Assembly: GCF_054482525.1 (NCBI RefSeq)
Contig: NZ_CM137006.1
DNA length: 64,000 nt
Strand: one strand, 5' to 3'
The notes under the pieces are model-generated. The model searched no databases, had not been told where the DNA came from, and saw only the letters and a list, made by a program, of their open reading frames with translations. This document shows, in pieces, positions 34,744 to 35,382 of the stretch (positions are counted from its first letter, which is position 1; the number at the start of each line of letters is the position of its first letter). The position numbers were made by a program, and so were the translations under genes.

Positions 34744-35181
34744 TCAAACCATCACCAGCGATAACTCTTTGCCAAGCGCCTTAGCCGCAAGCTGGACGGC
34801 GTCGATTTTTGTCGCATGGTGCAAGTTAAATAGGCGAGTAATCTCCTGTTTAGGTTTGCCAATTCGCCTGGCTAACTCTTGCTGAGTGATTTCTGACTGT
34901 AAAAAAGCATTTAACAGCAATACTTTAGAGGCGACGCTCAAAGGCACTTCAATAAAGTGATCGTGACTATTTAATGGCGAAGGTAAAGGGATAAGCTCGT
35001 TATCTTCAAAATAAAAATCAAATGCGGTCAGTAAAGCATCTTTTGCCGCTTCCATCGCTTCAGCGACAGTTTCGCCCTGCGTCAACGCTTCAGGGATATC
35101 CACAAAAGAAACCATATAACCGCCTTCCGGCGCGGGTGTAAGAGTGACGGGATAACGCATAATTTCGACTGTCTCTCGCAT
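34744..35181 (-). CDS. hicB: HicB antitoxin
   Basis: 145-aa ORF with C-terminal HTH; true start may be the internal Met (MRYPV). Confidence 0.8.
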   Translation of the reverse strand: MRETVEIMRYPVTLTPAPEGGYMVSFVDIPEALTQGETVAEAMEAAKDALLTAFDFYFEDNELIPLPSPLNSHDHFIEVPLSVASKVLLLNAFLQSEITQQELARRIGKPKQEITRLFNLHHATKIDAVQLAAKALGKELSLVMV

Positions 35182-35205
35182 GTCATTAACCTTTTTAATT
35201 GGCGA

Positions 35206-35382
35206 TTAACTCAAACCGAGTTGTTTCAGAATAGCTTTATGCAAGGGTTCTTTAATCTCTTCGCTGGGGAGACGCGGCATGACACTGCGCCTCCCGTGAA
35301 AACTGAGTTTTAAATGGTTGCTGCCATTCGCTACATCGACGCCCTGAGATTCGAGCCAACGTCTGAACTCGCTTTGTTTCAC
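35206..35382 (-). CDS. hicA: HicA mRNA-interferase toxin
   Basis: Hand-translated GTG-start ORF: (M)KQSEFRRWLESQGVDVANGSNHLKLSFHGRRSVMPRLPSEEIKEPLHKAILKQLGLS*; 58 aa; absent from the ORF track. Confidence 0.8.
   Translation of the reverse strand: MKQSEFRRWLESQGVDVANGSNHLKLSFHGRRSVMPRLPSEEIKEPLHKAILKQLGLS

Follow-up and report, generated by a model that had tools for sequence, protein, structure and literature searches.

The 64,000-nt stretch of DNA analysed here (the window) raises the question of whether a short, GTG-initiated frame next to hicB encodes a genuine HicA toxin, and whether that toxin differs from those already described. Few HicAB systems are better characterised than that of E. 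coli, and the locus is already annotated. What is new is a rare HicA allele that carries Leu in place of a normally conserved His at position 38 (H38L).

A GTG-initiated hicA upstream of hicB

The hicA coding sequence (35206..35382, minus strand) runs from a GTG start to a TAA stop and encodes a protein of 58 residues, MKQSEFRRWLESQGVDVANGSNHLKLSFHGRRSVMPRLPSEEIKEPLHKAILKQLGLS, the rare allele WP_000813798.1. An earlier note, made from the letters alone, had proposed this GTG-initiated frame, which it described as missing from its list of open reading frames, as hicA; the gene is confirmed by the frame itself and by the identical RefSeq coding sequence, which record NZ_CP006632.1 annotates as hicA at exactly these coordinates. 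Upstream of the GTG, an in-frame TGA occurs at 27 nt with zero other start codons between, and the first in-frame ATG inside the gene is codon 35, so hicA is invisible to an ORF finder that accepts only ATG. A Shine–Dalgarno sequence, GGGAGG (35387..35392, minus strand), precedes the GTG by 4 nt, and K-12 has the same hexamer there. The GTG is also overlapped by an out-of-frame, one-codon start–stop ORF, ATGTGA (35379-35384, minus strand), which shares the same Shine–Dalgarno sequence and is identical in K-12.

Alignment of the translation with K-12 HicA (6HPB_A) gave 53 of 58 identical residues (91%) over the full length, with E=4.4e-31; the translation does match HicA, as the earlier note had predicted of the product. 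A search of 1.84 billion representative proteins returned 112 homologues at E<=1e-3. The catalytic residue His23, at the start of β2, is present, in a column that is His in 89 of 90 homologues. At the level of family models, the expected match held for the antitoxin and failed for the toxin. HicB exceeds the cut-offs of both HicB_lk_antitox (PF15919; 32.8 bits, cut-off 27) and HTH_3 (PF01381; 31.4 bits, cut-off 23), whereas HicA aligns to Pfam HicA_toxin (PF07927) over residues 3-58 of 58 with 24.2 bits (E=3.6e-5), under the gathering cut-off of 27 bits. A PADLOC scan left HicA unmatched and gave only weak, HTH-type matches for HicB. We therefore base the HicA assignment on orthology and not on the family model, because H38L pushes this allele below the Pfam cut-off.

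A frame of 58 codons with a non-ATG start and a sub-threshold Pfam score might be open by chance, which would leave hicB as the only real gene. Such a frame would hardly share 91% identity over its full length with a crystallised and experimentally toxic protein or find 112 homologues at E<=1e-3 in a library of 1.8 billion proteins, and it sits in conserved synteny, behind a strong Shine–Dalgarno sequence, as a RefSeq coding sequence. The match to 6HPB_A and the homologue search already refute this reading, and we regard it as extremely improbable.

The antitoxin gene lies downstream on the same strand, confirming the toxin-first order that had been proposed. Its start is ambiguous: the 138-residue form, WP_001270286.1 (34744..35160, minus strand; N-terminus MRYPV...), uses the start chosen by RefSeq and PDB 6HPB, and a longer form of 145 residues (34744..35181, minus strand), called mechanically from an in-frame ATG at 35181, is the one used by PDB 6U0I. 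The stop coordinate that the earlier note gave for hicB, 34744, is right with either start. HicB is identical to 6HPB_B (138 residues) and to residues 4-148 of 6U0I_A. Between the two genes lies a spacer (35161..35205, minus strand) of 45 nt, or 24 nt from the 35181 start, with zero differences from K-12.

The surroundings place the pair on the E. coli chromosome. A 938-base query across the locus was identical (100%) to E. coli PCN033 (NZ_CP006632.1), and the window contains 6.9 kb of this record intact, again at 100% identity. The window is chromosomal DNA identical to that of strain PCN033. RefSeq annotates the gene order in NZ_CP006632.1 as sutR, rlhA, yncJ, hicA, hicB, ydcR, ydcS, and a K-12-type genome has the same order. 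The reading of the locus as a hicAB toxin–antitoxin pair is thus supported by the yncJ and ydcR flanks, the identical HicB and the 91% HicA identity. The same synteny and identities assign it to the E. coli hicAB orthologue group: judged from its sequence, the locus is an already-known type II toxin–antitoxin system. A literature search found no papers linking PCN033 with hicAB.

Several other features of the window were recorded. The neighbour most diverged from K-12 is sutR (window about 37960-38500, minus strand; L001 108-644), which differs at 25 of 537 nt (4.7%; 7 nonsynonymous changes), compared with roughly 2-2.5% in the other flanking genes. The start of rlhA (ydcP; 35926-37929, minus strand) is ambiguous, with a mechanical ORF of 667 residues from a GTG and a RefSeq product of 653 residues (1,962 nt). 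Rfam matches at gathering level were obtained for the antitoxin RNA sok (110.6 bits; 50705-50856, plus strand), which implies a hok/sok type I toxin–antitoxin locus, and for the sRNA RydC (92.5 bits; 51416-51479, plus strand).

A candidate HicB operator and P2 promoter

In K-12, HicA is a 58-residue RNase of the dsRBD fold; its cutting of mRNAs and tmRNA does not depend on translation, and the arrest it causes is bacteriostatic (PMC11594946, PMC10865869). HicB covers the HicA active site with an N-terminal partial RNase-H fold, and its C-terminal helix-turn-helix domain provides dimerisation and DNA binding (PMC11594946, PMC10865869). Transcription of hicAB is induced by starvation in a Lon-dependent manner (PMC11594946, PMC10865869). 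Two promoters have been described: the upstream P1, which has a CRP-S motif, is activated by Sxy and transcribes both genes (PMC11594946, PMC10865869), and P2, where HicB represses transcription through an inverted-repeat operator, hicO, and excess HicA relieves the repression (PMC10865869, PMC11594946). The P2 mRNA yields HicB and not HicA (PMC10865869).

The earlier note had suggested looking for a HicB-bound operator in 35383-35450, and this interval contains a good candidate. The perfect inverted repeat GTAAACA-cTAa-TGTTTAC (35415..35432; 7-4-7), which spans -50 to -33 relative to the GTG, is the only perfect inverted repeat near the hicA start and the sole zero-mismatch copy of this palindrome in the 64-kb window. 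It is unchanged in K-12, CFSAN061763 and EC11. On the basis of its position and the published description of hicO, we assign it as the candidate HicB operator.

L008, a related hicAB locus with 75% identity in HicA, carries GTAATA-N6-TATTAC at -50 and again at -83. If its arms are read as GTAAAC-N6-GTTTAC, the E. coli repeat matches that of L008 in its 18-bp geometry and in its GTAA...TTAC ends. Upstream of hicA at two more distant loci (L009 and L010), no perfect inverted repeat was found, so the conservation of the operator is backed by one related locus. The hicAB pair of L008 lies within a small toxin–antitoxin cluster, unlike its E. coli counterpart: a second pair, comprising a RelE-family toxin and an MqsA/HTH-type antitoxin, is found about 560 bp downstream of hicB (L008 2710-3177; GCA_001908105.1).

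Between the palindrome and hicA, the motif TGaTATACT (35401..35409, minus strand) is a candidate extended -10 element of P2. Transcription from it would start about 7 nt past the motif, 1-3 nt before the hicA Shine–Dalgarno sequence. A start at the very edge of the ribosome-binding site would fit the published observation that P2 mRNA gives HicB and not HicA (PMC10865869). A consensus promoter and terminator scan of 34600-35700 called neither hicAB promoter, and its matches were at chance level. A search for the CRP-S pattern TGCGA-N6-TCGCA with <=3 mismatches gave 270 matches against 309 expected, none of them convincing upstream of hicA.

A rare HicA allele

Compared with K-12, hicA differs at 10 of 177 nt, and five of these differences are nonsynonymous (R27S, H38L, C40S, D41E and R48H); the 7 differences in hicB are all synonymous. 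The ratio of nonsynonymous to synonymous differences is 5:5 in hicA, 0:7 in hicB and 26:111 in six neighbouring genes pooled. The nonsynonymous enrichment of hicA over the six neighbours is marginal (Fisher p=0.035).

Of 5,426 complete E. coli genomes, 3 have the exact hicA allele. Its carriers, PCN033, SCU-102 (human, USA) and 19KM1776 (dog, Switzerland), do not differ from one another across 1,777 bp. There are no intermediates between this allele and its nearest relative, which is 97.2% identical, has S40 and E41 and keeps R27, H38 and R48. C40S and D41E are shared with a frequent alternative allele (the 95-99% identity band, 602 genomes), and R27S, H38L and R48H are confined to the three genomes. 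Codon 38 (35269..35271, minus strand) is CTC, for Leu; K-12 has His at this position, as do nearly all homologues. A search with the sequence around the Leu38 codon matched the same three of the 5,426 genomes and no others. Codon 27 (AGT, Ser; 35302..35304, minus strand) and codon 48 (CAT, His; 35239..35241, minus strand) each replace an Arg present in K-12 and in the nearest allele, and both fall in variable columns. Column 38 is far more constrained: among 90 diverse full-length homologues it is His in 84 and Leu in 0, comparable to His23 (89 of 90).

This substitution largely accounts for the low family score. Against Pfam HicA_toxin, the K-12 allele scores 30.9 bits, the S40/E41 allele 33.2 bits and the window allele 24.2 bits. 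Introduced alone in silico, H38L lowers the score from 33.2 to 25.9 bits (about 7 bits), under the cut-off, whereas R27S costs 1.4 bits and R48H 0.3 bits. RefSeq gives the window allele the symbol hicA with the product name 'hypothetical protein', probably because H38L places the protein under the Pfam cut-off. We excluded NCBIfam as the cause of this naming difference: in a scan of three HicA alleles, none was matched by any HicA model. For annotation, the consequence is that one natural substitution leaves a true HicA orthologue under the Pfam threshold, and toxin–antitoxin censuses based on such thresholds would miss a HicA of this kind.

Toxin loss, toxin function and known HicAB systems

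Some part of the locus is matched in 5,415 of 5,426 complete E. coli genomes, and hicA in 4,253. Two degenerate forms were resolved. In the first, represented by A33 (L006 1201-1693, aligned to window 34666-35603), a 445-bp deletion begins halfway through the palindrome and ends near codon 60 of hicB, removing hicA and leaving hicB as a pseudogene; an A33-like pattern of 53% coverage is seen in about 1,170 of the 5,426 genomes. In the second, represented by EC11 (L007 1019-1173, corresponding to window 35243-35264), hicA has lost 22 bp after codon 39 and with them its reading frame; it is annotated as 'mRNA interferase, frameshifted', and hicB is intact. A 74-nt query across this deletion did not separate the alleles, as the matching pieces were joined; a 41-nt junction query did, and found the EC11 junction in 199 genomes. 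These counts indicate that toxin loss at the locus is common and tolerated, which makes a decaying allele plausible, short of proof.

Does the rare allele itself disable the toxin? Many HicAs have a His at the position of B. pseudomallei residue 40, 'close in space to His24' (PMC3969222, Butt et al.), and we mapped this position by hand onto E. coli position 38 through the spacing of the conserved Pro, Asp/Glu and Gly after β3. In gonococcal HicA, the corresponding His also follows β3 and is 'close in space to His24', and the H40A mutant retains wild-type toxicity on overexpression (PMC12297915). The G22C, H24A and H29A mutants are not as toxic as the wild type (PMC12297915). Our initial hypothesis, that H38L inactivates the toxin, was downgraded because gonococcal H40A keeps its toxicity.

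His23 of E. coli HicA is conserved and important for RNase activity (PMC11594946, PMC6159526), and the HicA of the window keeps both His23 and His29. With these residues in place, the protein has most likely remained an RNase to which HicB can bind, and we consider it most likely to be functional and neutralisable by HicB. On hand mapping to the S. pneumoniae HicBA interface (PMC6159526), the listed HicB contacts include no counterpart of residue 27, 38 or 48, from which we weakly infer that HicB binding is probably unaffected by the substitutions of the allele. Full activity should not be assumed, as H38 is highly conserved and is reported to lie near the catalytic His (PMC3969222), and a partial loss could be hidden in an overexpression assay like the gonococcal one. 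Substantial attenuation of the toxin seems possible but rather unlikely.

An alternative is that the module is decaying: HicA of the PCN033 lineage would be substantially attenuated or inactive, and the locus would act mainly through HicB as repressor and antitoxin, at an early stage of toxin loss. In its favour, Leu stands in a column that is His in 84 of 90 homologues and Leu in none, at a cost of about 7 Pfam bits and at a position said to be a spatial neighbour of the catalytic His (PMC3969222). In addition, R27S and R48H remove two arginines from a basic RNA-binding protein, substitutions are split 5:5 in hicA against 0:7 in hicB, and the frameshift in 199 genomes and the deletion in about 1,170 show toxin loss to be tolerated and recurrent. 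Against it, gonococcal H40A, the sole mutant tested at the equivalent residue, is no less toxic than the wild type (PMC12297915), and the allele keeps His23 and His29, each of which homologues require. The hicA frame is also intact in 3 of 3 isolates that carry the allele (pig, human and dog), the divergence of hicA from the nearest allele (2.8%) is not above that of the flanks (2.6%), and the nonsynonymous excess is only marginally significant. On this balance we find decay doubtful. The related proposal that the three-genome lineage including PCN033 has a naturally attenuated or specificity-altered HicA beside a fully conserved HicB can be held only tentatively. If it were true, hicAB of the PCN033 lineage would represent, in living cells, an intermediate step of decay in which a chromosomal toxin–antitoxin module loses its toxin first, and would offer a natural test of the role of the near-invariant second His of HicA.

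Collectively, we hold with high confidence that the window carries a chromosomal hicAB locus orthologous to that of K-12, with the palindrome as its candidate operator and with a rare HicA allele that is most likely still an RNase. Together with the 199 frameshifts and about 1,170 deletions, the rare allele shows that E. coli can do without the toxin gene of this locus and that the gene erodes repeatedly, with hicB staying intact in both the rare-allele and the frameshifted genomes. The residual interest of the H38L allele lies in its being an edge case for annotation and a possible natural probe of the second conserved His.

Of the known systems, K-12 hicAB (HicA b4532/yncN, HicB ydcQ; PDB 6HPB, 6HPC and 6U0I) is the closest, and nothing in the anatomy of the locus, as read from the DNA, appears to depart from the K-12 model. 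The two share the position between yncJ and ydcR, the toxin-first order, the GTG start, the Shine–Dalgarno sequence, the 45-nt spacer, an identical HicB protein and the catalytic His23 of HicA. The 56 nt upstream of the GTG are also identical, including the palindrome and the putative P2; over the upstream region as a whole, 5 of 221 bases differ. Two upstream SNPs are at 35439 (-57, the nearest to the GTG) and 35464. These SNPs and the five HicA substitutions R27S, H38L, C40S, D41E and R48H set the locus apart from K-12. The degenerate A33 and EC11 loci have the same position and flanks with the toxin gene lost or damaged, whereas in the window the hicA frame is intact and hicB is complete. 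The HicA proteins of N. gonorrhoeae and B. pseudomallei belong to the same dsRBD-like fold family, with a catalytic His at the start of β2 and a second His after β3 near the catalytic one (PMC3969222, PMC12297915). They are distant in sequence, and their HicB partners are of the ribbon-helix-helix rather than the helix-turn-helix type. Gonococcal HicA stays toxic when this second His is replaced with Ala; in the HicA of the window, the residue at that position is naturally Leu.
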